Virus genome (UHGV): UHGV-0268347
DNA: 27,718 nt
Reading direction: 5' to 3' (one strand)
Source of the DNA: a virus
In this document: positions 182 through 16,289 of the stretch, piece after piece
Layout: each line of letters starts with the position of its first letter
Numbering within the stretch: the stretch's first letter is position 1
Program-made: the position numbers and the translations under genes
The notes under the pieces: model-generated
Databases searched by the model: none
What the model was told of the DNA's origin: nothing
What the model saw: the letters and a program-made list of their open reading frames with translations, nothing else

Positions 182-420
182 GAACTTGCTGGCCTAAGAA
201 GAATGCGCGCTGATTTTGAAGATAAAATCAGCGTTACAACGCCCGAAAGACCCGGGCTAAAAAATTTCTCAGGACATTATCGGCAGGTGACACTCTGGTG
301 GTCTGGAAACTGGATCGACTGAGGCGCAGTATGCGGCATCTTGTCGTGCTGGTGGAGGAACTGCGCGAAAGAGGCATCAACTTTTGCAATCTGACGGATT
401 CAATTGATACACAGTATCTT
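182..420 (+). pseudogene. Serine recombinase (Pin/Gin/Hin-type DNA invertase) remnant, N- and C-terminally truncated with an internal frameshift
   Basis: One frame gives ...FEDKISVTTPERPGLK, the next gives KFLRTLSAGDTLVVWKLDRLRRSMRHLVVLVEELRERGINFCNLTDSIDT; together these resemble residues about 30-95 of Pin-family invertases. The frame switches near the A-run at 255-262. The catalytic-serine N-terminus is absent and the sequence diverges after SIDT. Confidence 0.6.
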
Positions 421-545
421 GTTAACACCAACACATGGCTGCAGGAGGGATATTATCGGTACCCGATTTCAGGATACAGCGCCTGATTAGACTAAAGAGG
501 GGCTATATTGTAGAGTTTGCTAAATTTTTTTATAGGGTTAAGCAA

Positions 546-1616
546 ATGACAGTCAGGAACTACACTAATTTAAATTTAGATCGGACAACTATTGAGGCTA
601 CGTCTAGGGCATTTATTGAAAATAAAAACTATTCCGTCCATTCAATTGGACCAATGCCTGGTGCAAGAGCAGGACTTCGGGTTGTGTTTGCTAAACCAGG
701 AGAAGCTTTGGCAACTGTTAACATTTTCTATAATAACGGAGGGACGTCTACAGTCCAGTATCAAACAGGAGCTAATCATAATCTTGGAAAAGAGTTGGCT
801 GATGATCTCTATGAAACCATCAATCCTGCAGAATTTGAACAGGTAAATATGGTGTTACAAGGGTTCGTTGAAGCGAACGTTTTATCTGTACTTCAGCTCT
901 CAGCAGAGCAGCCACATATACAATTTTACGAATACTTACGGAACACTCATACAACGGTGTGGAAAATTCATTCGCCAGAATTTCAGGATGAGTTGACAGT
1001 TAGTCTGCATCACAGAAATGGAACACTACAAATACAAGGGCGTCCATTGTCATGTTATAGAGTGTTTATATTCAACTTGTCAGAGCTACTCGATTTACAA
1101 GGACTGGAAAAAGTTCTCATTCGTCAGGACGATGGCAAAGCGTATATAGTTCAGAAAGAAGTTGCTCGCTCACATCTAGAGTGTGAAATGGGGGATGCGT
1201 ACCCACTATTGCATAAGAATGTTGAAAAATTGCTCGTTTCTGGGCTGTGTGTTAAACTCGCCGCCCCCGATTTACCCGATTACTGTATGTTGTTGTATCC
1301 TGAATTACGTTCAGTTGAGGGAGTACTTAAATCAACAATGTACCGATATGGCATGCCAATCACGCAGGATGGTTTCGGGCGTTATTTTGATAAAATTGGG
1401 AGTGAATTTATTCTGAAACAACAATTTGGATGCAATTTATCGTCAGCTAAGGTTAAGACCATTAATGATGCCTATACTTTCTTTAACAGAGAACGTCATG
1501 GCCTGTTTCATATGGAGATAGTTGTCGACACAAGCCGTATGGTTTCTGACATGGCACGACTGATGACTAAGGCCAGACAGGCATGGGGAATTATTAAGGA
1601 TTTGTATATTGTTTGA
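546..1616 (+). CDS. rnlA: RNase LS toxin RnlA
   Basis: 356-aa product from ATG 546 (MTVRNYTNLNLDRTTIEA...GLCVKLAAPDLPDYCMLLYPELR...AWGIIKDLYIV); length and sequence closely resemble E. coli RnlA as I recall it. The ORF track's 435 start is an upstream in-frame extension. Confidence 0.8.
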   Translation: MTVRNYTNLNLDRTTIEATSRAFIENKNYSVHSIGPMPGARAGLRVVFAKPGEALATVNIFYNNGGTSTVQYQTGANHNLGKELADDLYETINPAEFEQVNMVLQGFVEANVLSVLQLSAEQPHIQFYEYLRNTHTTVWKIHSPEFQDELTVSLHHRNGTLQIQGRPLSCYRVFIFNLSELLDLQGLEKVLIRQDDGKAYIVQKEVARSHLECEMGDAYPLLHKNVEKLLVSGLCVKLAAPDLPDYCMLLYPELRSVEGVLKSTMYRYGMPITQDGFGRYFDKIGSEFILKQQFGCNLSSAKVKTINDAYTFFNRERHGLFHMEIVVDTSRMVSDMARLMTKARQAWGIIKDLYIV

Positions 1617-1971
1617 AATAACAGGTGTTAACGTCTCAGGGGCTCTCATTGCCGTCGTTATGGCGACTGGCTACGAGAACCCCTTGACTTCAGTTCACGA
1701 AATCGAGAAGAGGCTTTCTGTTATACTGGGCAATTCACAGGCTACAGGTGAGGTTTTGTTTGACCTTTTGTGTTCTAATGGTCCAGAGTGGAATCGCTTT
1801 GTTTCGCTGGAAATAAGGTGTGGCAGTATTTTGCTGGATACTGCCAAAATTGTGGATGAGCAAGAAATTCCAGCGCAGATCTTGAGACATCAGAGAGATG
1901 TATTACGTAACCACCCTGAGTACGTAGAAGACTCTGTGTTAACACCAGATGATGTTCTTTGTATTCTCTAG
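1609..1971 (+). CDS. rnlB: RnlB antitoxin
   Basis: 120-aa product MFEITGVNVSGALIAVVMATGYENPL...NHPEYVEDSVLTPDDV, resembling RnlB; overlaps the rnlA stop by 8 nt (operon arrangement); apparent TTG start. Confidence 0.75.
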   Translation: MFEITGVNVSGALIAVVMATGYENPLTSVHEIEKRLSVILGNSQATGEVLFDLLCSNGPEWNRFVSLEIRCGSILLDTAKIVDEQEIPAQILRHQRDVLRNHPEYVEDSVLTPDDVLCIL

Positions 1972-2108: not shown

Positions 2109-2378
2109 TTACAAACCAATAATCTGGAATAGCGCGGTTGCTGCTGCAGACAATGCTGCAAATGAATTGTACTTAGATTGAAGCCGCGCAGTGGCGAAGA
2201 AATCATGGAGATTCACGTTAAGTTCGGGATCTTCATACGTAACCATGACAATTTTTTTGCCTAACTCAACTTTTGCTGTAGCAGATTTAATCCATAAAAT
2301 TGCAGATAAGACGCCAAAAGTTAATGACATCACATGATGATCTTTAATCCAACACATCACAAAAAGTAGATTTTCCAT
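2109..2378 (-). CDS. Hypothetical small hydrophobic protein (89 aa)
   Basis: ORF with a strong RBS (aggaaggtga) 4 nt upstream of ATG on the minus strand; no family recognised; could be a gene fragment. Confidence 0.25.
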   Translation of the reverse strand: MENLLFVMCWIKDHHVMSLTFGVLSAILWIKSATAKVELGKKIVMVTYEDPELNVNLHDFFATARLQSKYNSFAALSAAATALFQIIGL

Positions 2379-2521: not shown

Positions 2522-2548
2522 AAACGAAAAAGCCCGCAGATGCGGGCT
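2522..2548 (-). terminator. Rho-independent terminator (minus strand)
   Basis: Stem agcccgca/tgcgggct with 2-nt loop at 2531-2548, followed on the minus strand by a T-run (plus-strand gaaacgaaaaa). Confidence 0.6.
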
Positions 2549-2678
2549 TTCATGTCACTTGGGAGCCGCGGCTCCTTTGCGTATCCTTTTTTGTATCCTC
2601 ACCGTCTGGTCGGTGTCCTGCTGAGACTGCTAACTTCCTGTTTTTATTGGTGTTGTCCTTACACCGTCCAATCATGAT

Positions 2679-2723
2679 TGGTGGAGCTGGCGGGAGTTGA
2701 ACCCGCGTCCGAAATTCCTACAT
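2679..2723 (-). other. ssrA: Prophage attachment-site core: 45-nt duplicate of the 3' end of tmRNA gene ssrA
   Basis: Reverse complement reads ATGTAGGAATTTCGGACGCGGGTTCAACTCCCGCCAGCTCCACCA, identical to the ssrA 3' end as I recall it; the match stops abruptly at 2724, so this is a partial att copy, not the gene. Confidence 0.8.
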
Positions 2724-2808
2724 ACCATTTTCACTATAGCAAAAACATTAACTTGCGTTTAAAATCAGCAAGTTAGTATTATCTTGTGTTTGTCCGTTTT
2801 ACTCATTT

Positions 2809-3855
2809 TTAATGCTCTGTCGCCAATCTGTCGCCATTGTAGGTCAACGAAGGTTGAGCCTTCCCTTTGTTTGTTACAATTTCATCAAAGATAGCTGGAT
2901 TATTATCTTTCAGTAATCTTGCTAGTATAATGATTTGCCCAGACGAGCCATCATCCTTGAATGAAAGGAAATTATCGGTAATATCAAGAATATCAATGGT
3001 AAATTTGAAGTAGGTTTCAATTGTATCGCCAAGTTCAATGCTGGACATGAAGTTAGTAATCATTTCATATCCATCAAAGTATAAAGTTGCATGTTCATTT
3101 AACTCCATGGGAGTTAGGCAAAGCATTCGATTAAGTTCGGATAAGTGTTTTTCTATTGAATGAAGAGATTGCATTTGACGGATTAAAACTTCGTCAAACT
3201 GAGAGCCACGATTAGATGAATTTATCTTCTCTAGGTTTTTTAGTATATCAACCCAGTGATTATTTACTTCACGTATGTATTCTTTATCTGTATTTTTAGG
3301 CCGTCCCTTCTCTGGTGAGCTATTTATGAAAATATATCTATATAGATGTATTGGGTAGTTAATTTTATAACTTATCTCTTTAGTACCATAATGACGTTCG
3401 CGTTTAATGGTTTTGTTAGGTAAATTGGTGAAATAATCAGTAACGAACTTTAGATGGCTATAGTAGCTATCAGATAGATTCTTTTGCTTGGTTTCCTCAA
3501 TTTGTCGGTTTGTTTGAACTGTGCGGTGTATGTTTGCTACGACAGCAACAAATGGTATGGACAAAGAAAGTAAGGCGATAGGAAGCTTGCTAATTGCAAT
3601 GAAATTATTAAAGCCCTCACTATCAAATTGAGGGGAATGTCCAAGCCAGGAAAATATACCAAAGTATATCGCTGAAAATACAGGAATCCTAAGTGATTGT
3701 TTAAATAAGTATTGACTTGTTAATGGCCTTTCATCCATGTTAAAGCCTTTTTTTGATACGCATAGATATAATTCAAGGCATATATATATAAAATATATTA
3801 TGATAAGTAAGTACGATATCCATGGGTATTGTTGGATATAGTTATTAACAAGCAC
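2809..3855 (-). CDS. Hypothetical multi-pass membrane protein (348 aa), AT-rich integrase-adjacent moron
   Basis: ORF between int and att; N-terminus has about three hydrophobic helices (WISYLLIIIYFIYICLELYL, IPVFSAIYFGIFSWLG, LPIALLSLSIPFVAVVANI), then a roughly 230-aa soluble domain; visibly AT-rich. GTG start at 3855 overlaps the int stop, preceded by GGAG; the next in-frame Met is residue 40. Confidence 0.55.
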   Translation of the reverse strand: MLVNNYIQQYPWISYLLIIIYFIYICLELYLCVSKKGFNMDERPLTSQYLFKQSLRIPVFSAIYFGIFSWLGHSPQFDSEGFNNFIAISKLPIALLSLSIPFVAVVANIHRTVQTNRQIEETKQKNLSDSYYSHLKFVTDYFTNLPNKTIKRERHYGTKEISYKINYPIHLYRYIFINSSPEKGRPKNTDKEYIREVNNHWVDILKNLEKINSSNRGSQFDEVLIRQMQSLHSIEKHLSELNRMLCLTPMELNEHATLYFDGYEMITNFMSSIELGDTIETYFKFTIDILDITDNFLSFKDDGSSGQIIILARLLKDNNPAIFDEIVTNKGKAQPSLTYNGDRLATEH

Positions 3856-4885
3856 TTTCTAATTTTCTCCATCCAAGGTTAGCAAGAGGATTTTTGGTTA
3901 CAGCATCTTCCAGATGGTCGGGAGCGAAGTGGGCGTAAATCATTGTCATTTTTATATCGACATGGCCCAGAATATCGCGCAGCACCAGTATGTTTCCGCC
4001 ATTCATCATAAAGTGACTTGCAAATGTATGTCGTAATACGTGTGTGCATTGCCCTTCTGGTAGCTCGATACCAGCTCGTTTAACCGCACGTTCAAAAGCT
4101 TTCCTACAAGGTGTAAATAATTTTCCCCTATTCTTAGGCAGTTCTTCATATAAATCCTTTGAAATAGGCACTGTTCGGTTTTTCTTTCCTTTAGTCTTGG
4201 TATAAGTGATACGGTATTTTGATACCTGATGACTCTGTAAGTTTTCGGCTTCGCTCCAGCGTGCGCCGGTGGCCAAGCATATTTTTGCAATCATCAGCAG
4301 ACTGGGGCTTTGAGAATCAGCACAGGCATCCAGCAGACGTTTAATTTCTTCCGGGGTCAGGAACGCCAATTCACCCTCAGCAATTTTAAATGTTGGCAGC
4401 CCAGCAAGCGGGTTGGGGGCTGACCAGTGGCCCAGCTTTTTCAGTGTACCAAAAACAGATGATAGGTTGCGCTGTTCAAGATTTACCGTGCGGGGCTTAA
4501 CGGGCGACATAAGCGTGCCATCTTCATTTCGTACTTCACCTTTTAACCGTGCTTCGCGGTATTTCGTAAACTCACCAGCTGTCAGTTCTGAGGCGATGGG
4601 ATCGCCTAGACCATTACAGATAATTCTAAGTTTCGCCATGAGGCGCTTGGGGTCTGCGAGTGTTTGACCATACAGGGAATACCACAGCTCAATTAATTCT
4701 GATAGATGTCGCCGATCTTCCTTTTCCCCTAGCCATGGTTTTTTGTTCACTTCTTCCATTGTGAAGCTTTCAAACGCAATGGCTTCGCCTTTGGTAGCAA
4801 ATTGCTTACGCACGCGCTTACCATTGCGTCCATTGGGATAGCACTCACACAACCATTTTCCGTTCGGCTGTTTTCTGATGGTCAT
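3845..4885 (-). CDS. int: Tyrosine integrase (P2/186-type)
   Basis: 346 aa; C-terminal catalytic region with HVLRHTFASHF and MIYAHF (R..H-x-x-R..Y pattern); positioned next to att and the repressor as in P2/186. Confidence 0.93.
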   Translation of the reverse strand: MTIRKQPNGKWLCECYPNGRNGKRVRKQFATKGEAIAFESFTMEEVNKKPWLGEKEDRRHLSELIELWYSLYGQTLADPKRLMAKLRIICNGLGDPIASELTAGEFTKYREARLKGEVRNEDGTLMSPVKPRTVNLEQRNLSSVFGTLKKLGHWSAPNPLAGLPTFKIAEGELAFLTPEEIKRLLDACADSQSPSLLMIAKICLATGARWSEAENLQSHQVSKYRITYTKTKGKKNRTVPISKDLYEELPKNRGKLFTPCRKAFERAVKRAGIELPEGQCTHVLRHTFASHFMMNGGNILVLRDILGHVDIKMTMIYAHFAPDHLEDAVTKNPLANLGWRKLESAC

Positions 4886-4888
4886 AAG

Positions 4889-5527
4889 TTAGAGGTTCTT
4901 GATTACTTTGACTGCACGTCCTACGACTTCCACATCATCTACAGAACATTCAAATGAAGTGTCATCTTGGTTAACTACTATTTTGTTTCCGGGTATGCGC
5001 GCAATTTTGACGATGCTTTTAACTCCGTCCATATCGACTAACCAGAAGCCATTACTGACTTGTTTAACAGACGTATCCACTACAAAGCTATCATTAGCTG
5101 TTTTAACAAATAAAGCGTTGGATGAGTCACCATCGAGCAGGCTGCTATCAAGAAGAATTTCATCACTTGGCTGCAGTTCGCCGTTCTTCAGTTCAACACG
5201 TTTGATGCTAGGAGCAACGATCTTAGAAAGTGGTCTTACAGTGACGGAAGGTTCATTTTTGAGATTTATTTCTTCGTTCTCACACGCATACATATCTCCT
5301 TGACCAGTAGCCAGCCATAGAAGGGAAGCTCCTGTTTCAAGGGCACATTGGATTACCCATTCGGCAGGAAAGCTATCCCTTAAGTATCTGTTAGCCATAG
5401 TGCTTTTTGATACTTCCAGATGTTCGCAGAGCTGCTGTCGTGAGCTGAAGTTGTAAGCCTTAATAAGCCTATTAATCGCATCGCGCCCACCACTATCATT
5501 CCCCGCCTTGATTAAACTCATAATCAA
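4889..5527 (-). CDS. cI: CI-type lysogeny repressor
   Basis: 212 aa, divergent or convergent with the apl-cII operon and immediately upstream of int; N-terminal region resembles the phage CI-repressor HTH domain (186-like). Confidence 0.75.
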   Translation of the reverse strand: MIMSLIKAGNDSGGRDAINRLIKAYNFSSRQQLCEHLEVSKSTMANRYLRDSFPAEWVIQCALETGASLLWLATGQGDMYACENEEINLKNEPSVTVRPLSKIVAPSIKRVELKNGELQPSDEILLDSSLLDGDSSNALFVKTANDSFVVDTSVKQVSNGFWLVDMDGVKSIVKIARIPGNKIVVNQDDTSFECSVDDVEVVGRAVKVIKNL

Positions 5528-5912: not shown

Positions 5913-6422
5913 ATGTTTGATTATAAGATTTCCAAACACCCGCATTTTGATGAAGCCTGTAGAGCTTTTGCACTTCGTCATAATATGGCGAAGCTGGCAG
6001 AACGTGCAGGAATGAATGTCCAGACTCTGCGAAACAAACTCAACCCAGATCAACCGCATCAGCTCAATGCGCCAGAAATCTGGCTGCTTACCGATCTGAC
6101 TGAAGATTCAACGCTGATAGATGGTTTTCTGGCACAGATTCACTGCCTGCCATGTGTACCGATTAATGAGGTAGCAAAAGAGAAACTGCCGCATTACGTC
6201 ATGAGTGCAACCGCAGAGATCGGGCGTATTGCTGCAGGTGCGGTATCTGGCAATGTAAAAACCAGTGCAGGTCGTCGTGATGCTATCAGCAGCATTAACT
6301 CTGTAACACGACTGATGGCGCTGGCTGCTGTTTCATTGCAGGCCCGTTTACAGGCTAACCCGGCGATGGCGAGTGCAGTTGATACCATGACTGGCCTTGG
6401 TGCTTCATTCGGTTTGCTGTGA
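5913..6422 (+). CDS. cII: CII-type lysogeny-establishment regulator (186 CII-like)
   Basis: 169 aa, MFDYKISKHPHFDEACRAFALRHNMAKLAERAGMNVQTLRNKLNP...; close resemblance to phage 186 CII as I recall it; good RBS (aaggggg). Confidence 0.85.
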   Translation: MFDYKISKHPHFDEACRAFALRHNMAKLAERAGMNVQTLRNKLNPDQPHQLNAPEIWLLTDLTEDSTLIDGFLAQIHCLPCVPINEVAKEKLPHYVMSATAEIGRIAAGAVSGNVKTSAGRRDAISSINSVTRLMALAAVSLQARLQANPAMASAVDTMTGLGASFGLL

Positions 6423-6429
6423 GGTGTTT

Positions 6430-6726
6430 ATGCTGACGAAAGAACCATCATTTGCATCGCTGCTGGTAAAACAAAGCCCGGCAATGCACTACGGTCACGG
6501 CTGGATCACGGGTGAGGATGGAAAACGCTGGCATCCATGTCATTCACAAGATGAATTGCTGTCTGAATTGACCACGAGGAAACGGAGAAAGTCCAAATGT
6601 ATGTGGCAGAAAGTGAAGTGGTTTATCAGTTTCGTTACAGAGGGGAGAGTTATTCAGTACCTGAAGATGATTTGCTCTGTTGCTATCCGTCATTGTCGGG
6701 CGATGGCAGTTACTTTTTCACGTTAA
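6430..6726 (+). CDS. Fil-like small protein (3' end uncertain)
   Basis: MLTKEPSFASLLVKQSPAMHYGHGWITGEDGKRWHPCHSQDELL...; occupies the position of 186 fil after cII. Its 3' part overlaps the next ORF in another frame, so the true stop is uncertain. Confidence 0.4.
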   Translation: MLTKEPSFASLLVKQSPAMHYGHGWITGEDGKRWHPCHSQDELLSELTTRKRRKSKCMWQKVKWFISFVTEGRVIQYLKMICSVAIRHCRAMAVTFSR

Positions 6727-6821
6727 AGGATGGGACGTTTTTACGGGGAGAGCAGGTTAAAGAGACGATACGAAAAAATGTATCTCCTCTTGAGCGTTAC
6801 CGTAAGAACAAAAAACGATAG
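6597..6821 (+). CDS. Hypothetical phage early protein (74 aa)
   Basis: ATG preceded by RBS ggagaaag; overlaps the 3' end of the Fil-like ORF in a different frame. Confidence 0.45.
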   Translation: MYVAESEVVYQFRYRGESYSVPEDDLLCCYPSLSGDGSYFFTLKDGTFLRGEQVKETIRKNVSPLERYRKNKKR

Positions 6822-6843
6822 CTGCGTTTGGGGGATATGAAGT

Positions 6844-7185
6844 ATGGCAATTAATGGCGCTGCAGCAACTGTTCCATTAAGCCCCGGTGAACGCCTGAAT
6901 GGACTTAATCACATTGCGGAGTTAAGGGCGAAAGTTTTTGGCCTGAATATTGAGTCAGAGCTTGAGCGGTTTATTAAAGATATGCGTGATCCACGGGATA
7001 TCAATAATGAACAAAATAAACGGGCACTGGCTGCCATATTCTTTATGGCAAAAATTCCAGCTGAACGTCATAGCATCAGCATTAATGAGCTGACCACTGA
7101 CGAAAAGCGGGAGCTGATTAAAGCAATGAATCATTTTCGTGCAGTGGTGAGCTTATTTCCCAGACGGCTAACCATGCCGAATTAA
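6844..7185 (+). CDS. Hypothetical phage early protein (113 aa)
   Basis: ORF in the early rightward operon; no family recognised. Confidence 0.5.
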   Translation: MAINGAAATVPLSPGERLNGLNHIAELRAKVFGLNIESELERFIKDMRDPRDINNEQNKRALAAIFFMAKIPAERHSISINELTTDEKRELIKAMNHFRAVVSLFPRRLTMPN

Positions 7186-7252
7186 CCAACTAATGAAATT
7201 AATGGCGTAAACCCGCCGGGCATCCCTTTATCTAAATCCAGGAGAATTGATT

Positions 7253-7486
7253 ATGCGTAATATTGAAACCATCACGACTAAAACCGGACCGGATAATGCA
7301 GGGCTTAATATTTTACTGACAGAGGCTCGTCTGGAAGAACGCCGGGCAAGGGCTGAAGCAATGGCAGCTCGCCTTGATAGCCTGGCGTGTCATATCACAT
7401 CCCGCCAACTAAACCACGTCGAAGCGGCAGAACTGCTGCGTGTGACTGCTGAAGCAATCCAGAACGAAGCGCAGGAGATCCACTGA
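7253..7486 (+). CDS. Hypothetical phage early protein (77 aa)
   Basis: ATG at 7253 preceded by AGGAGA; its stop overlaps the next start (ATGA-type overlap). Confidence 0.5.
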   Translation: MRNIETITTKTGPDNAGLNILLTEARLEERRARAEAMAARLDSLACHITSRQLNHVEAAELLRVTAEAIQNEAQEIH

Positions 7487-7713
7487 TGGCTGATGCAATG
7501 GATCTCGTACAGCAGCGAGTTGAAGAAGAACGCCAACGTCATATCCGTGCTGCCCGTGCCAAAACGCCGGGCGTGTCCCGCGTGCTTTGCGTTGAGTGTG
7601 AAGCGCCAATTCCGCCAGCACGCCGCCGTGCCATTCCGGGTGTGCAGCTTTGCATTACCTGTCAGGAAATCGCAGAGCTGAAAGGCAAACATTACAACGG
7701 AGGTGCTGTATGA
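7486..7713 (+). CDS. TraR/DksA-type C4 zinc-finger protein
   Basis: 75 aa with CVECEAPIPPARRRAIPGVQLCITCQ (four Cys in C-x2-C...C-x2-C arrangement), as in the small zinc-finger ORFs of P2/186 early regions. Confidence 0.6.
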   Translation: MADAMDLVQQRVEEERQRHIRAARAKTPGVSRVLCVECEAPIPPARRRAIPGVQLCITCQEIAELKGKHYNGGAV

Positions 7714-8567
7714 GCACCATCCTGAAATGGGCGGGAAATAAAACCGCCATTATGTCCGAACTGAAAAAACACCTTCCTGCTGGCCCGCGACTGGTTGAAC
7801 CTTTCGCGGGTTCCTGTGCTGTGATGATGGAGACGGATTACCCCAGCTATCTGGTTGCGGATATTAATCCTGATTTAATCAACCTCTATAAAAAGGTTGC
7901 CTCTGATTGTGAATCGTTTATATCTCGCGCCAGAGTTTTATTTGAGATCGCAAACAGGGAGGTGGCTTATTACAACATAAGGCAGGAGTTTAATTACTCC
8001 ACTGAAATTACTGATTTCATGAAAGCGGTATATTTCCTGTATCTCAATCGTCACGGTTACCGTGGTTTATGTCGCTATAACAAGAGCGGGCATTTCAACA
8101 TTCCCTACGGTAATTATAAAAATCCGTATTTCCCTGAAAAAGAAATTCGCGCATTTGCAGAGAAAGCCCAGCGTGCAACGTTTATCTGCGCAAGCTTTGA
8201 TGAAACGCTGGCGATGCTGCAGGTGGGGGATGTGGTGTATTGCGATCCGCCGTATGACGGTACGTTTTCCGGCTATCACACTGATGGTTTCACTGAAGAT
8301 GACCAGTATCACCTGGCATCCGTTCTTGAACATCGGTCATCAGAAGGACATCCGGTCATTGTTTCTAACAGTGATACATCCCTGATCCGTTCGCTGTATC
8401 GCAATTTTACTCACCACTACATCAAGGCAAAACGCAGCATCGGTGTAGCAGCTGGTGAGAGTAAATCTGCAACAGAAATCATCGCTGTTTCCGGGCCGCG
8501 CTGCTGGGTGGGATTTGATCCTTCGCGTGGCGTGGATAGTTCTGCCGTGTACGGAGTGCGTGCATGA
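7710..8567 (+). CDS. dam: DNA adenine (N6) methyltransferase, Dam family
   Basis: 286 aa; N-terminal KWAGNK motif ([15 protein letters not shown]), [16 protein letters not shown], catalytic DPPY ([10 protein letters not shown]); start overlaps the upstream stop and the stop overlaps the A start. Confidence 0.9.
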
Positions 8568-10978
8568 GCCATGCTGATATGAACAACTGCAGCGGCTTTA
8601 ACAAGGTCGCCGCAGCATTCTCATGGAACAGCCCGAAAAAGGCCATTAACCCTTATCTGGACCCGGCGGAAGTTGCGCCGGTTTCTGCGCTTTCAAACCT
8701 GATCACTCTGTACGCTACCGATAACGAGCAGGAACAACTGCGCCGCGAGGCACTGAGTGATCAGGTCTGGGAGCGTTATTTCTTTAATGAATCCCGTGAT
8801 CCTGTCCAACGCGAAATGGAGCAGGATAAGCTCATTAGCCGGGCAAAGATGGCGCATGAGCAGCAGCGTTTTAATCCAGACATGGTCATTCTGGCTGACG
8901 TCAACGCCCAGCCTTCCCATATCAGCAAGCCGCTGATGCAACGTATTGAATATTTCAGCAGCCTGGGCAGGCCAAAGGCTTATTCCCGCTATTTGCGTGA
9001 GACGATTAAGCCATGTCTGGAACGACTGGAGCATATACGCGACAGCCAGCTATCTGCATCTTTTCGTTTTATGGCAAGCCATGAAGGGCTGGACGGTCTG
9101 CTGATCCTGCCTGAAATGAGTCAGGATCAGGTGAAACGCCTGTCTACCCTTGTCGCTGCGCATATGAGCATGTGTCTTGATGCCGCTTGTGGTGATTTGT
9201 ACGCCTCCGATGATGTTAAGCCAGAAGAAATCCGCAAGACATGGGAAAAGGTGGCTGCAGAAACCCTGCGACTGGATGTCATACCGCCTGCGTTTGAGCA
9301 ACTCCGCCGGAAAAGAAACCGCCGCAAACCTGTGCCTTATGAACTCATTCCGGGTTCGCTGGCGCGTATGCTGTGCGCCGACTGGTGGTATCGGAAATTA
9401 TGGAAGATGCGTTGCGAATGGCGGGAAGAGCAGTTGCGTGCTGTCTGCCTGGTCAGCAAAAAAGCATCTCCCTATGTCAGCTATGAAGCCGTGATGCATA
9501 AACGTGAGCAGCGCCGTAAGTCGCTGGAGTTTTTCCGTTCTCATGAACTGGTGAACGAAGACGGCGACACGCTGAACATGGAGGATGTGGTAAACGCCAG
9601 CAGCAGCAACCCGGCGCATCGCCGCAACGAGATGATGGCCTGTGTTAAAGGCCTGGAGCTTATCGCGGAAATGCGTGGTGACTGCGCCGTTTTCTACACC
9701 ATCACCTGTCCGTCACGTTTCCATTCCACGCTAAATAACGGCAGGCCAAACCCGACCTGGACCAACGCGACAGTAAGACAAAGCAGCGATTATCTGGTCG
9801 GCATGTTTGCTGCATTTCGTAAGGCTATGCACAAAGCCGGGTTGCGCTGGTATGGCGTGCGGGTGGCTGAGCCGCATCATGACGGCACAGTTCACTGGCA
9901 CCTGTTGTGTTTCATGCGCAAAAAAGACCGCCGCGCCATTACTGCATTGTTGCGTAAGTTTGCCATCCGAGAAGACCGCGAGGAGCTGGGCAATAACACG
10001 GGGCCACGCTTTAAGTCTGAGCTGATAAACCCGCGCAAAGGAACGCCGACAAGCTACATTGCGAAATATATCAGTAAGAATATTGACGGGCGTGGTCTGG
10101 CTGGCGAGATCAGTAAGGAAACGGGTAAATCCCTGCGTGATAACGCTGAATACGTTAATGCCTGGGCGTCTCTGCATCGTGTTCAGCAATTCCGCTTCTT
10201 TGGCATTCCGGGGCGTCAGGCTTACCGTGAACTGCGATTGCTGGCTGGTCAGGCGGCAAGGCAACAGGGTGACAAAAAAGCAGGTGCGCCGGTACTGGAT
10301 AACCCGCGCCTTGATGCCATCCTGGCTGCTGCTGATGCTGGTTGTTTTGCCACCTACATCATGAAGCAGGGCGGCGTACTGGTTCCCCGCAAATATCACC
10401 TCATCAGAACCGCTTATGAAATCAACGAAGAGCCAACCGCCTATGGCGATCACGGTATTCGTATTTATGGCATCTGGTCACCCATTGCAGAGGGCAAGAT
10501 CTGCACTCATGCAGTGAAGTGGAAAATGGTTCGTAAGGCCGTTGACGTTCAGGAGGCGGCTGCCGACCAGGGCGCTTGCGCCCCTTGGACTCGTGGCAAT
10601 AACTGTCCCCTTGCTGAAAATTTGTACCAACAAGGGAAAGACAAATCAGCTGATGGGGATACCAGAACGGATATCACCCGTATGGATGACAAGGAGTTGC
10701 ACGATTACCTGCACAGTATGAACAAAAAAGAACGCCGGGAACTGGCTGCAAGATTACGCCTGGTGAAACCGAAACGGCGTAGAGACTACAAACAGCGAAT
10801 TACAGACCATCAACGACAGCAGCTCGTCTATGAACTGAAGTCCAGAGGATTTGATGGCAGCGAGAAAGAGGTCGATTTACTCCTTCGCGGCGGCAGCATT
10901 CCGTCAGGAGCAGGCCTGCGTGTCTTCTATCGGAACCAGCGTTTGCAGGAAGATGATAAGTGGCGGAACCTGTATTAA
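8564..10978 (+). CDS. A: Replication initiation endonuclease A (P2 gpA / 186 A family)
   Basis: 804 aa; metal-binding HWH motif ([10 protein letters not shown]) and tyrosine region ([10 protein letters not shown]) typical of rolling-circle initiators; position after the early operon. Confidence 0.93.
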
Positions 10979-11797: not shown

Positions 11798-12838
11798 TTG
11801 ATTAAAGTTGTTGATCTTTTTTGCGGAGCAGGTGGCTTAACTCATGGTTTGCAACGAGCAGGGTTGAATGTGGTTGCAGGCTATGATATTGATGCTACAT
11901 GTCGGTATGCTTATGAAAAAAATAACAATGCTTTATTTGTGCAAAAAAGCGTCACTGAACTTGATGAAGGGGAAATAAGTAAGCATTTTAAGGATGCATC
12001 AATTAAAGTTTTAGCTGGATGCGCTCCATGCCAGCCATTTTCTAGTTATACAAATACTGATAAATCAGTAAAAAAAATAAAAGACCATCGATGGTCTTTA
12101 TTGTATAGCTTTGCTAAGCAAATTCAATTATGTGCTCCAGATATAGTCACAATGGAGAATGTTCCAAGAGTTATTAACCACAAAGTTTTTAAAGATTTTG
12201 TGAAGACTTTAAAGTCTGAAGGGTATTTCGTTTGGTATGATACTGTATTTTGTCCTGATTATGGAATGGCCCAAAGCCGATCTAGATTAGTGTTATTAGC
12301 GTCCAAGTTTGGCGAGATAAAACTAATCCCGCCAACACATGATAAAAATAACTATAACACTGTACGTAGCGTTATTGGTGGATTGCCTCCTATTGATGCT
12401 GGATCGAGTGATGAGAAAGACAGACTTCATTATGCTGCATCTTTATCACCATTAAATATGGAGCGAATAAAACATTCTAAGCCAGGTGGAACATGGAAAG
12501 ATTGGCCTGAGTACTTACGGGCGTCATGCCACACCAAAGAATCAGGATCTTCTTACACTGCAGTTTATGGAAGAATGAGCTGGGATAAACTTGGCTCTAC
12601 AATTACAACACAATGTATAGGTTTTGGTAATGGTCGATTTGGTCATCCAGAACAAAATAGAGCTATTAGCCTAAGAGAGGCAGCTTTGCTTCAATCTTTT
12701 CCTCTAACTTATGAATTTTGGCCAGCTGAAGTAAAAGTTGAACTCAGGAATGTTGCACGACTGATTGGTAATGCTGTGCCGGTGAGGCTCGGTGAAGTTG
12801 TTGGGCAAAGTATTATTGAACACCTTAAAAGAAAATAA
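11798..12838 (+). CDS. DNA (cytosine-5) methyltransferase
   Basis: 346 aa with canonical C5-MTase motifs: I DLFCGAGG, IV GCAPCQPFS (catalytic Cys), VI ENV, VIII QSRSRLVLL, X GNAVPV. TTG start with RBS agggagga and extended -10 (tgcTACAAT) upstream; visibly AT-rich. Confidence 0.92.
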   Translation: MIKVVDLFCGAGGLTHGLQRAGLNVVAGYDIDATCRYAYEKNNNALFVQKSVTELDEGEISKHFKDASIKVLAGCAPCQPFSSYTNTDKSVKKIKDHRWSLLYSFAKQIQLCAPDIVTMENVPRVINHKVFKDFVKTLKSEGYFVWYDTVFCPDYGMAQSRSRLVLLASKFGEIKLIPPTHDKNNYNTVRSVIGGLPPIDAGSSDEKDRLHYAASLSPLNMERIKHSKPGGTWKDWPEYLRASCHTKESGSSYTAVYGRMSWDKLGSTITTQCIGFGNGRFGHPEQNRAISLREAALLQSFPLTYEFWPAEVKVELRNVARLIGNAVPVRLGEVVGQSIIEHLKRK

Positions 12839-12863
12839 AAAGGGCGAATCGCCCTTTTTTTTA
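12839..12863. terminator. Bidirectional rho-independent terminator shared by the convergent gene pair
   Basis: Stem agggcg-aat-cgccct flanked by an A-run on one side and a T-run on the other (aaaagggcgaatcgcccttttttttag). Confidence 0.75.
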
Positions 12864-14819
12864 GATACCATCAACAATTTTCATTATTCGTGCAGCATCA
12901 TCTTTTTTGCTCTGATACTCAGAGTATGCTTGTTTGGATTGTATTATAAGATCGCTATATGTTAATACCTTTGCATTTATAGATTGTAGCTGTGAGCGAA
13001 TATAATTATCTCCACTTCCGTCATAACCTTTGCCGACAAGAAAAACTACATCTATCGGTGGTATTTTTCCGGCAGGGCAACTATTTGGGTTGTTTCTAAA
13101 CCACTGCTCTGTGGCAACAACATATTTCCTTCCTTGACCTACTAATGCCAAAATATCAGGATATACATTTGGTCTTTTCATTTCAATGATGACGTGTTTA
13201 CCTGAAACGGTTTTGAAGGCTATATCAATTCTTGCACCACTTTCAGCGTCAGGGTTAACCTCTTTCAATTCCTTAGTCAGGGTTTGTTCCATAACTGTAG
13301 AACCAGTAACCCTCTCCCATGATGGGTCTAACAGCCATAAGTGGTCATAAAGATATTTTTGTACAGCCTTCTCTAACTCATTGTCATCGGTGATTTTTTG
13401 AAATTTCTCAATAACTTTCAATCGCTGTGATGTAATCTCATAAAAAAGGCTTGCCTCAATATCATTTACAGAAGCAAAAACCTCCCTAAAATGTTCTGAG
13501 TTTAAATCGCTAATTTTATCTAAAGCCTCAAGGTTATCTTTTATTCTTAATCTTTCAAAAGCAAGAACTGTATTTTTTAATACGGTTTTTTTTGCAATTT
13601 TCTGGTTTTCTTCATCTCCAGAAAATCTAAATGTGTTAATTTTGCCTAGTAATTTTTCGGCGCTGTTTCTTTCATGTTTTGACATGGAATCAAGCCAATC
13701 ACTTACAGCAGGTGAAGTTTTTTTAACCTCGCTAAGACCTTTTGCTCTTCGCCATTCATCCCATTCTTTATCTATTTTTTGTAATGTCCGTTCTAAGAAA
13801 CCCTTAATCACAGGATAGCGTGGATCATTCTGCTGTAATTTCTGTCGGGATGAGGTTGCCATGTCAGGTTTTTCATTTTCATCTAAAAAATCTGCGACAA
13901 GTTCCCCTACTAAATAATTTGTAAAAACCTTTGCGCTTCCGAATTCAAGCAATATATCTTCTTCAAATACCCGCCCATTTGATATTACGGTTATCGTGTT
14001 GTTAGATATTTCAGGGTCTTTTTTAAGTTGAGATGGTTTCTCAACACTTCCTACATAACCAGTAATGAAATAATCTACGCCTTCAAAAGATAATTTGTTA
14101 TCTAGAAGGCTTTTTTTAGAAAGATTTTTGCAAGATTTTACTCTTGCGGGATCTGAACTACCAAACTCCCATAAAAATTCAAGATCTGAAAGGAAGTCTC
14201 TATCTTCAGTAGTTATCTCAGTGTCATTGATTTTAACTATAAAATCATGACCAGGACCAATTATGCTAAACCGTCTGGCAAGTCTTTTTCTTAGATAGGT
14301 CTGAGTTCTATCAATGGATTTTTTTAAATCCATAAGAACTATTGTCGTCCCTATACTAAAGTCTTTCGGAACATTAATAATATTTGCAACATATTGTTTA
14401 CTGCTTTTTATACAGCGTTGCAATTCATCAACGTCAACTTCAAATCCCTGAGGCGTTTGGCCAATTTTGTGAGAAAATACTTGGATTTTGTTAGCTAATG
14501 AAAACATTGCTAATTTACCAATGCCTTTTCTACCCATGACTTGTCGTTGTAATCCATCACTTTTATACCTTCCACTTTCTCTTCTGGCATATCCAACTTT
14601 TAGGAATTTATTAATGATGTCATCTTTTGACATTCCATGTCCATCATCTTTAATTATTACCTTTTCATTTTCAACATCTAGAGTGATGTCTACATTTTTA
14701 GCATCCGCATCCCAAGCATTTGAGATTATTTCAGTTAGAACAGCTGGTGTGTTAGAGTAAAGACTCATACCTAAATGATTCAATACATTCAGGTCTATTT
14801 TAATTTCGAAATCGGACAT
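12861..14819 (-). CDS. GHKL-family ATPase fused to a C-terminal PD-(D/E)xK nuclease domain (652 aa); candidate restriction/defence effector
   Basis: N-terminus has Bergerat-fold motifs: N-box EIISNAWDADAKN, G1 IKDDGHGMS, G2 GRKGIGKLAMFS. C-terminus has GARIDIAF...GKHVIIEMKRP (acidic D532 and E546-x-K548 after hydrophobic strands). RBS aaggaaagga; visibly AT-rich. Confidence 0.85.
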   Translation of the reverse strand: MSDFEIKIDLNVLNHLGMSLYSNTPAVLTEIISNAWDADAKNVDITLDVENEKVIIKDDGHGMSKDDIINKFLKVGYARRESGRYKSDGLQRQVMGRKGIGKLAMFSLANKIQVFSHKIGQTPQGFEVDVDELQRCIKSSKQYVANIINVPKDFSIGTTIVLMDLKKSIDRTQTYLRKRLARRFSIIGPGHDFIVKINDTEITTEDRDFLSDLEFLWEFGSSDPARVKSCKNLSKKSLLDNKLSFEGVDYFITGYVGSVEKPSQLKKDPEISNNTITVISNGRVFEEDILLEFGSAKVFTNYLVGELVADFLDENEKPDMATSSRQKLQQNDPRYPVIKGFLERTLQKIDKEWDEWRRAKGLSEVKKTSPAVSDWLDSMSKHERNSAEKLLGKINTFRFSGDEENQKIAKKTVLKNTVLAFERLRIKDNLEALDKISDLNSEHFREVFASVNDIEASLFYEITSQRLKVIEKFQKITDDNELEKAVQKYLYDHLWLLDPSWERVTGSTVMEQTLTKELKEVNPDAESGARIDIAFKTVSGKHVIIEMKRPNVYPDILALVGQGRKYVVATEQWFRNNPNSCPAGKIPPIDVVFLVGKGYDGSGDNYIRSQLQSINAKVLTYSDLIIQSKQAYSEYQSKKDDAARIMKIVDGI

Positions 14820-15239: not shown

Positions 15240-16289
15240 TCAGCCTCGTTTGCTCTTAAGTCCTAAGTCATAGGCTTCAAAACGGATCACCTCTTCACCC
15301 AGCCAGTTGTTAAGCTCCTGCAGTCGCTTTTGCAGTGGCATCAGTTCATTGCGGACGAAAACACGGCTCGCCTTTTCCACATCACCGAAGCCACCAGTGT
15401 TGTTGGGAATGATACCCATCATTTGCGGCGGCACACGATGCGCCGCCATCATGTCGTCCCGGCTTACGTTCTTGATGTTCAGAAACTCATCCTTCGCCGC
15501 GACTTCTGATAACGGGATAATCTGAAGTCCGTCCTTTTTGCCGTTAGGAGAGTACATAAACAGATTGCGGAAGTTACCTGGTCCTTTGGCGCTTTTCATT
15601 GCATTGCGGAGGTTGTTCACATCCTCCTGGTTTTGTGCGGCGTCGGTCATGTACATGATGAAGCCTGCATGACTGCCGTTGATGTAATACTTCCGGCGGA
15701 ACAGCGTGGCGGACTCGTTGAGCAGGGCTGACGGAATGGCAGAAAGATAACCGGGCAGGCCGTAGATCTCCTGGTTGATGTCCGGTTCCATCAGATGAAA
15801 AATGCTGCCTTTCGCGAACTGATACGGCTGGGTTGTCATACCGTATTGCACAAACCAGTAGGTATCCAGGTCTAACCCGCGTCGGGTGTATTTTGCCAGA
15901 GCAGGCTCTAGGGCGATAACTTCACCGAAGCGGTTCGTGCGTTTCTCCAGGTAGGCGTTACCAAATACCAGATAGTCCTGCACAAAACGTGAAAAAGCCT
16001 GCTGGCTGAGCAGCGGGTGAGGGATGTAGGTGCTGGTCAGAATGTTGCATTTCACCGCAATCGGTGAGCTGTGATGCACGGCGGCGCGGAAGGTTCGCGC
16101 CAGTCCGTCGAAACTCACAGGCGGCTCATACCAGCGATCCATCTGTACGCATTCCACATAGTCCAGCAGTTCACGGCGGTCCAGAACAGGAACGGGATCG
16201 CCGAAGCTGAATGCTTCGGCTGTAGTTTGACTTTTAAGCTGGATCTGTTTCGTCGCCGCAGCGCGGTTCTTCTTACTCTTTCCCATCAA
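15240..16289 (-). CDS. Q: Capsid portal protein Q
   Basis: 349 aa; size, position next to cos and upstream of the terminase ATPase, and sequence match P2 gpQ. Confidence 0.9.
   Translation of the reverse strand: MMGKSKKNRAAATKQIQLKSQTTAEAFSFGDPVPVLDRRELLDYVECVQMDRWYEPPVSFDGLARTFRAAVHHSSPIAVKCNILTSTYIPHPLLSQQAFSRFVQDYLVFGNAYLEKRTNRFGEVIALEPALAKYTRRGLDLDTYWFVQYGMTTQPYQFAKGSIFHLMEPDINQEIYGLPGYLSAIPSALLNESATLFRRKYYINGSHAGFIMYMTDAAQNQEDVNNLRNAMKSAKGPGNFRNLFMYSPNGKKDGLQIIPLSEVAAKDEFLNIKNVSRDDMMAAHRVPPQMMGIIPNNTGGFGDVEKASRVFVRNELMPLQKRLQELNNWLGEEVIRFEAYDLGLKSKRG

Follow-up and report, generated by a model that had tools for sequence, protein, structure and literature searches.

The window analysed here, the 27,718-nucleotide stretch of the virus genome UHGV-0268347, includes one end, the left one, of a 186-like (P2-like) prophage integrated at ssrA, and between the integrase gene int and a copy of the ssrA (tmRNA) 3′ end it carries an open reading frame (ORF) of 348 amino acids (aa) that we call gene X. 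We find X to be an allele belonging to an old and large family, which is carried along on the cI-int lysogeny operon and turns over in the manner of a cassette, and we regard it as a good candidate for a new phage-exclusion protein. The anatomy of the gene, the pattern of its conservation, its genomic position and the turnover of the slot that holds it are all directly observed, and its genomic position is the strongest evidence on X. That X is a protein gene rests on hydropathy, the distribution of charge, an AlphaFold2 model, homologues and purifying selection. Defence and exclusion cargo on prophages is known, and an int-att hotspot has recently been described; what is new is a large, unannotated, int-coupled family that is built into attP.

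Gene X on the lysogeny operon

The minus strand of the prophage end reads cI, int, X, a spacer of 85-90 nucleotides (nt) and the ssrA 3′ end copy, and P2-like gene content is seen both in the window and in its sister loci. The genes of this end and their junction are as follows, TM standing for transmembrane and PGAP for the NCBI Prokaryotic Genome Annotation Pipeline.

4889..5521, minus strand: cI-type immunity repressor, first gene of cI-int-X (PGAP on near-identical prophages; Pfam Phage_CI_repr in homologous loci)
3845..4885, minus strand: int, P2/186-type tyrosine integrase (Pfam Int_N and Phage_integrase; by BLASTP 55% identity to 186 Int and 39% to P2 Int)
3845..3855, minus strand: int/X overlap of 11 nt, with the int TAA at 3847-3845 and the X GTG at 3855-3853; putative translational coupling junction
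2809..3855, minus strand: gene X (348 aa), an ORF with a GTG start and three predicted TM helices, N-terminus out and C-terminus in

An earlier note, made from the letters of the window, had placed a 348-aa ORF between int and the att core, and this is where X lies; the range it gave, 2740-3860, holds the whole ORF and also takes in a 69-nt non-coding spacer beyond it. The overlap of the X start with the int stop is as that note had described it, and so is the AT-richness of the gene relative to the flanking phage genes, with a GC content of 33.8% for X (31% at third codon positions), 45.8% for int, 42.6% for cI and 51% for the remaining prophage.

The junction with int is a property of the family as a whole. 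A motif scan of IMG/VR yielded 80 X loci in 37 clusters at 80% identity, and in 33 of the 37 clusters X sits in a tight junction directly 3′ of a same-strand Int orthologue of the P2/186 type (337-346 aa), at a gap of -44 to +11 nt; in clusters L058 and L092 (our locus labels) it comes after the CI repressor and is followed by a same-strand ORF of about 346-349 aa. Homologues in Citrobacter (67% identity) and E. coli (39%) keep the same order of cI, int, X and ssrA core, their starts overlapping the int stop by 11 or 4 nt. A distant member in Vibrio phage 10N.286.55.F1_PE001 (L009, 13712-14833; profile E 4e-22) begins 1 nt after a LexA/CI-like repressor at the end of a 15-kb tailless PM2-like (Vinavirales) prophage, so that the family crosses viral realms while staying on the lysogeny transcript. 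Vibrio tailless prophages have been reported to carry an accessory-gene hotspot enriched for defence genes. Further members in Xenorhabdus, Pseudomonas and metagenomes lie at the ends of prophages or islands, near integrases or the gpD end of P2-like prophages, and a narrow-alignment scan of species-representative genomes returned six X loci.

According to the GenBank annotation of 186, transcription of the lysogenic operon (pL/pE) passes through cI, int and the ORF after it and stops at a terminator on the far side of attP. Given this annotation and the operon position of X, expression in lysogens is the natural expectation, and X would be expressed there on a cI-int-X transcript. Read-through of this kind in the lysogen would probably end at a hairpin that we read from the sequence and that does not appear in the list of a simple terminator scan:

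2527..2550, minus strand: GC-rich hairpin with T-run, AAAGCCCGC-ATCT-GCGGGCTTT, just past the ssrA core on the host side

Between int and X, a sequence scan revealed no promoter or terminator signal, and a consensus scan for a promoter belonging to X found fewer promoter-like sites than chance would give and none that was usefully placed. X looks like an extension of the cI-int operon. The term moron, used in the earlier note, usually implies a promoter and a terminator of its own, and neither is evident for X; the gene is AT-rich accessory cargo, but as a family allele on the cI-int operon it is no isolated insert.

The RefSeq/PGAP annotation of identical genes starts at an internal ATG, Met40, at window position 3738, which makes a gene of 309 aa (2809-3738) with a 106-nt gap after int. 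As there is an in-frame TAG two codons 5′ of the X GTG and no further ATG, GTG or TTG until codon 40, the long form can only begin at GTG 3855. Sequence comparison supports this long GTG form better than the PGAP Met40 form, because codons 1-39 remain open in homologues with saturated synonymous sites, the GTG is kept in four diverged loci (67-88% identical, L023, L024 and L003 among them), the ratio of nonsynonymous to synonymous substitution (dN/dS) across the 39-codon N-terminal extension is 0.4-0.5, a hydrophobic TM1 helix stands upstream of the conserved core in 88 of 97 family members, and the Met40 position is mostly Leu, and thus not conserved, in the wider family. Among the 24 closest homologues Met40 is invariant, with AAGG 7 nt upstream of its ATG, and the X subfamily may possess an extra internal start at this point.

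At its other end, X reaches into the attachment site.

2679..2718, minus strand: copy of the ssrA (tmRNA) 3′ end, att core and prophage boundary (Rfam RF00023, to model position 374/374)
2818-2825 and 2829-2836: two tandem TGTCGCCA repeats, TG(T/C)CGCCA, 11 bp apart; putative Int arm-type (P′ arm) attP sites

The confident part of the Rfam tmRNA alignment covers 2679-2717, with the 3′ end at 2679, and ARAGORN found no full tmRNA within the window; a tmRNA 3′ end being present and a complete tmRNA not being found, we take 2679-2718 as the att core at the int-proximal end of the prophage. Besides the window, eight other loci contain the exact core string. In L001 (E. coli CFSAN051542), a locus otherwise 98.6% identical, it was not found with up to 3 mismatches at about 6150-6200, and a small indel in that core is likely. 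In 186, Int arm-type sites are annotated on the int side of attP, and the repeats match these in type and position. They stand at +108 and +119 from the core in each of the nine prophages that were compared, regardless of cargo, and belong to an octamer that has one other copy in the window; these features suggest that Int may bind them. Both fall inside the last nine codons of X (...NGDRLATEH*). Their register is kept in 11 of the 37 clusters, together with a conserved GDxLAAxH tail, and 10 further clusters have repeat copies at most 27 nt 3′ of the X stop (two copies in five of them, one in the other five). The presence of a conserved tail on a hypervariable domain is explained by the overlap of the X end with the arm-type repeats. 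The X cassette starts on the int stop codon and finishes on the arm-type sites, and its anatomy shows a way in which an ORF can be fitted into the attP region while leaving that region intact.

The interval that X fills is a variable cargo space, a point that the earlier note had wanted checked by comparison with related prophages. In every sister prophage sampled (L010-L016) the ssrA core is found beyond the cargo, and the int-att slot itself is occupied as follows.

L010 and L016: empty
L011 (1269-2492) and L014 (1270-2475): proteins of 401-407 aa, unrelated to X
L012: distant X allele
L013: opposite-strand dCTP deaminase, known anti-phage (PADLOC dCTPase, E 1.7e-145)
L015 (974-2494): 506-aa protein, unrelated to X

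The unnamed cargo of L011, L012, L014 and L015 has a GC content of 31-35%, and Pfam and PADLOC matched nothing in the slot cargo except the L013 deaminase; a RES domain, which the sequences of the L011 and L014 cargo had led us to guess, found no support in Pfam. The 407-aa cargo of L011, WP_001244285, is a 'predicted novel defense gene' in the portion of the DefensePredictor supplement consulted, and that portion lists this other occupant of the slot and not X. The 401-aa cargo occurs in E. coli LF82. Where X is followed by a second ORF before att or the next integrase, as in L107 (509 aa, 6121-7650, Cronobacter) and L027 (356 aa, 7126-8196), the slot can evidently hold more than one cargo gene. 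Among 5426 complete E. coli genomes, 214 have an int at least 80% identical in DNA and 14 have this X allele.

The earlier note had held the slot to be non-coding in P2 and 186. This is so for P2, which has no ORF there and in which the int 3′ end overlaps the P′ arm; for 186 the statement is incorrect, since 186 carries Orf69 (CP69) in the slot. Orf69 (L103, 1658-1909) takes the same place on the lysogenic operon as X, right after int and before the arm sites, but is a protein of 83 aa with seven LAPDGTYVGG-like repeats, 51% GC, no TM segment and no similarity to X. As a repeat peptide of this kind it was ruled out as a remnant of X, and it stands as an odd low-complexity peptide on the lysogenic operon, without assigned function. 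The int-att interval has been described as a minor defence hotspot of P2-like phages that holds 3% of their systems (PMC13586616, 2026), the main P2 hotspots having been described by Rousset et al. 2022 (PMC9122126). X shares with such cargo a slot that varies between close relatives, AT-rich content and a known defence gene in a sister slot; the hotspot as published counts recognisable systems only, and the X family falls outside PADLOC, Pfam and NCBIfam.

Membrane module, variable domain and family

Hydropathy places hydrophobic segments of X at about aa 12-33, 56-72 and 88-108. An AlphaFold2 model on 24 homologues (predicted local distance difference test, pLDDT, 79) has helices at 12-34, 49-71 and 79-143, the last of which, 65 residues long, extends from TM3 into the cytoplasm, and a mixed helical and β-hairpin domain at aa 148-340. 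The three TM helices and the large soluble domain that had been read from the letters thus reappear in hydropathy and in the model. Over 97 family members the mean number of lysine plus arginine residues is 0.8 in the N-terminal tail, 3.1 in loop 1, 1.0 in loop 2 and 3.9 after TM3, and by the positive-inside rule this pattern puts the N-terminus out and the C-terminus in, so that the large C-terminal domain is predicted to be cytoplasmic. The two parts of the protein are encoded as follows.

3415..3738, minus strand: conserved core of X, codons 40-147 (PLTxQxLF motif, TM2, GFxxF loop, TM3 and juxtamembrane HRTxQTxxQI...KNxxD helix)
2812..3414, minus strand: hypervariable C-terminal domain of X, aa 148-348 (helical bundle with β-hairpins; predicted cytoplasmic)

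Six residues, Q48, P58, F85, P92, H110 and Q114, are invariant in 97/97 members, and immediately after TM3 these members have the motif NNIHRTIQTxxQI...KNxxDxxYxHxK. Within the closest subfamily the core has a dN/dS of 0.02-0.04, as against 0.15-0.24 in the C-terminal domain. Across 33 Int-X pairs, identity is 61-98% for Int (median 75%) and 21-77% for X (median 27%), and in the same pairs the median is 41% for the N-terminal 146 residues of X and 16% for its C-terminal domain; even where the two Int proteins share 90% identity or more, the X proteins have a median of 30%. The C-terminal tails of Int, where the cassette starts, are also variable. A low dN/dS combined with an X identity far below that of Int identifies X as a constrained gene whose alleles are swapped between close phages. 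Taken over the length of the protein, these comparisons suggest a fixed membrane module joined to a fast-diverging cytoplasmic domain, which would be the signature of an arms race.

A word-indexed search returned 29 X clusters, all of them labelled 'hypothetical' and all from Enterobacterales. The full profile search of 1.84 billion representatives gave 823 clusters (at 50% identity) with E<=1e-3, of which 126 have E<=1e-30, mostly of 320-400 aa. PHROG 17460 ('unknown function') matches X near its full length (E 1.2e-156; aa 4-332 on profile positions 2-343/343). The earlier note had recognised no family for X and had asked for searches with hidden Markov models, and these agree with it: Pfam, NCBIfam and PADLOC offer no named family, the one PADLOC match being marginal and the PHROG having no function attached. 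That marginal match is to the CBASS-type '2TM effector' PDLC00691 (E 2e-4) and covers TM2 through the juxtamembrane helix; PDLC02912, a '2TM effector' model as well, weakly matches another member of the family (E 4e-5). Otherwise, scans of X and 97 members against Pfam, NCBIfam and PADLOC gave merely sporadic weak matches to TM proteins, and the Pfam models SLATT and DUF4231 gave none at E<=1 for X and none at E<=0.1 for the 97 members. Named superinfection-exclusion (Sie) families gave no match to X in Pfam, NCBIfam or the named PHROGs, no pairwise comparison with individual Sie proteins having been made, and two fold searches with X returned no informative match. The family is large, without annotation and absent from PADLOC, Pfam and NCBIfam.

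What X may do

As the function of X we tentatively favour a membrane-acting mechanism of the abortive-infection type that would protect the lysogen from other phages. Re-initiation at the stop codon of int would yield X in small amounts in lysogens, and its three helices would anchor it in the inner membrane, with the short N-terminus in the periplasm and the C-terminal part of 240 aa in the cytoplasm. The fast-evolving cytoplasmic domain would then recognise a component made by the phage, and the conserved TM2-TM3 hairpin, together with the polar HRTxQTxxQI juxtamembrane helix, would act as an effector or assembly module that perturbs the membrane. We prefer an abortive-infection type because the variable domain is predicted to be cytoplasmic, because the conserved part consists of a TM hairpin and a polar helix, and because the whole resembles a sensor joined to a membrane effector. 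In favour of defence we count the operon position, the family-wide junction, the defence cargo in the slot, the divergence pattern and the purifying selection, and furthermore the predicted topology, the weak similarity to 2TM effectors and a restriction-modification system elsewhere in the prophage.

Several points weigh against this proposal. That X lies in a defence slot amounts to guilt by association. Sequence searches of Pfam, NCBIfam and PDB produced no match for X, and a search of the literature on the RefSeq accessions of X and on int-adjacent membrane morons brought up no characterised member. PDLC00691 is matched by 2 of the 97 members and 2TM_IV by another such count of 2, and composition bias may account for these matches. 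The hypervariability of the C-terminal domain could partly be relaxed constraint. Finally, as no partner gene is present, X alone would have to both sense and act.

Extended to the family, the proposal becomes more speculative, and we consider it possible but doubtful that X founds a new and widely distributed family of anti-phage sensors, each of them a single membrane-anchored protein encoded on the lysogeny operon of a temperate phage. In such a family the hypervariable cytoplasmic domain would directly recognise components of the invading phage and the conserved TM hairpin with its HRTxQTxxQI helix would disrupt the membrane. The carriers would be P2/186-like phages of Enterobacterales, P2-like Pseudomonas prophages and tailless PM2-like vibriophages, and alleles would be traded as cassettes that run from the int 3′ end to the attP arm sites.

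Protection could also be of another kind, in which X in the inner membrane blocks the entry or ejection of the genomes of incoming phages, own relatives included, without the death of the cell. P22 SieA, T4 Imm and HK97 gp15 act by non-suicidal superinfection exclusion of this sort, and X resembles what would be expected of it in being a prophage-encoded, predicted inner-membrane protein on the lysogeny operon whose alleles turn over between closely related phages, and in having its highest conservation in the membrane hairpin and the short periplasmic loop (GHxPxFxxxGFxxF), as would suit a membrane machine of the host or the phage as the target. However, the variable domain, which presumably gives specificity, is predicted to be cytoplasmic, with merely about 11 and 15 residues in the periplasm; X matches no named Sie family in Pfam or PHROG; and at 348 aa it is much larger than known Sie proteins. 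We judge exclusion without cell death to be somewhat unlikely.

A role in lysogenic conversion or in the life of the phage itself, unrelated to defence (for instance as a membrane sensor or modulator acting on the physiology of the host envelope, on prophage induction or the timing of lysis, or on the control of Int and excision), is unlikely in our estimate. Such a role would fit the overlap or abutment with int in 33/37 clusters and the overlap of the X 3′ end with the putative Int arm-type sites, and the Met40 that is invariant in the subfamily, with its AAGG, could give a two-TM isoform of the kind found in holin/antiholin pairs. But X is dispensable, being absent or replaced in close ssrA-integrating prophages and absent from P2 and 186, Met40 is unconserved in the wider family, and the boundaries of the cassette account for the overlap between X and the arm sites, other cargo families ending at the same point. 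Nor does X look like a holin or antiholin in size (348 aa) or in place, which is on a lysogeny operon at the prophage end and not beside lysis genes. It is very improbable that the long ORF is an artefact of annotation or a decaying gene, of which only the two-TM form of 309 aa from Met40, or nothing functional, is made. The PGAP ATG at 3738 has the better-spaced AAGG, the X GTG having GGAG 11 nt upstream, and the allele is found in just 14 of the 5426 genomes; all of this is outweighed by an extension that is open and hydrophobic at synonymous saturation, with dN/dS below 1 and the GTG kept, by TM1 in 88 of the 97 members, by very strong purifying selection on the core and by the 823 clusters of the family.

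The favoured mechanism, an abortive-infection-type protein anchored in the membrane, has partial counterparts among known systems. Like Lambda RexAB, X would be a prophage product that protects its host, placed by inference on the repressor transcript and proposed to act as a membrane effector. The differences are that RexAB consists of a cytoplasmic sensor, RexA, and a four-TM channel, RexB, whereas X is one gene, encodes three TM helices and has attP directly after it, that most members of the family are coupled to int and not placed directly after cI, and that X belongs to no named Pfam family. The two-TM (SLATT-like) effectors of CBASS and Pycsar share with X a TM hairpin that leads into a long conserved helix, which is also where the weak PADLOC '2TM effector' matches arise, but X carries one more TM helix at its N-terminus and a 200-aa variable domain of its own. 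No cyclase or other signal generator lies beside X, whose neighbours are int and the att core, as is likewise the case in 33/37 clusters. For PD-T7-4, a single-gene defence that has been validated, the ORF 'often overlaps an integrase gene' (Vassallo et al. 2022, PMC9519451), and in this overlap X is like it; PD-T7-4 differs in its length of about 220 aa, its Zn-finger-HEPN label and the lack of a TM feature in that label, and X gives no PADLOC match to it. Being a Zn-finger-HEPN protein, PD-T7-4 was ruled out as a relative of X.

Should X be a defence or exclusion protein, it would add at least 823 clusters (50% identity) to what defence catalogues now cover. In P2/186-like phages the int-att slot, so far little studied, would become a productive place to search, with at least three other families without known function sharing the slot. 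The architecture is simple, in that a single protein unites a conserved membrane module with a cytoplasmic domain that can be swapped, and the way in which specificity is encoded is thereby open to direct test.

Other loci in the window

On the host or CP4-57-like side of the ssrA core, outside the prophage, lies a complete rnlA-rnlB pair (RNase LS toxin and antitoxin; 435-1616, plus strand, and 1609-1971, plus strand), and X therefore adjoins a further phage-related toxin-antitoxin locus. The pair is preceded by a recombinase fragment at 298-486 (plus strand), a truncated resolvase/invertase-like ORF. Between rnlB and the region downstream of ssrA, an 89-aa ORF with a hydrophobic stretch (2109-2378, minus strand) has no Pfam match and a PADLOC match at chance level, and it may not be a gene.

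The restriction-modification system is a type II pair located at the classical P2 hotspot, with a C5-cytosine methyltransferase at 11798-12838 (plus strand; PADLOC MTase_II/DrmMII, E 1e-87 to 1e-90) and a restriction enzyme at 12861-14819 (minus strand; REase_II, E 9e-91). In the window this hotspot is bounded by replication gene A at 8564-10978 and by a 349-aa ORF at 15240-16289 (minus strand), which from its position we take to be the portal gene Q.

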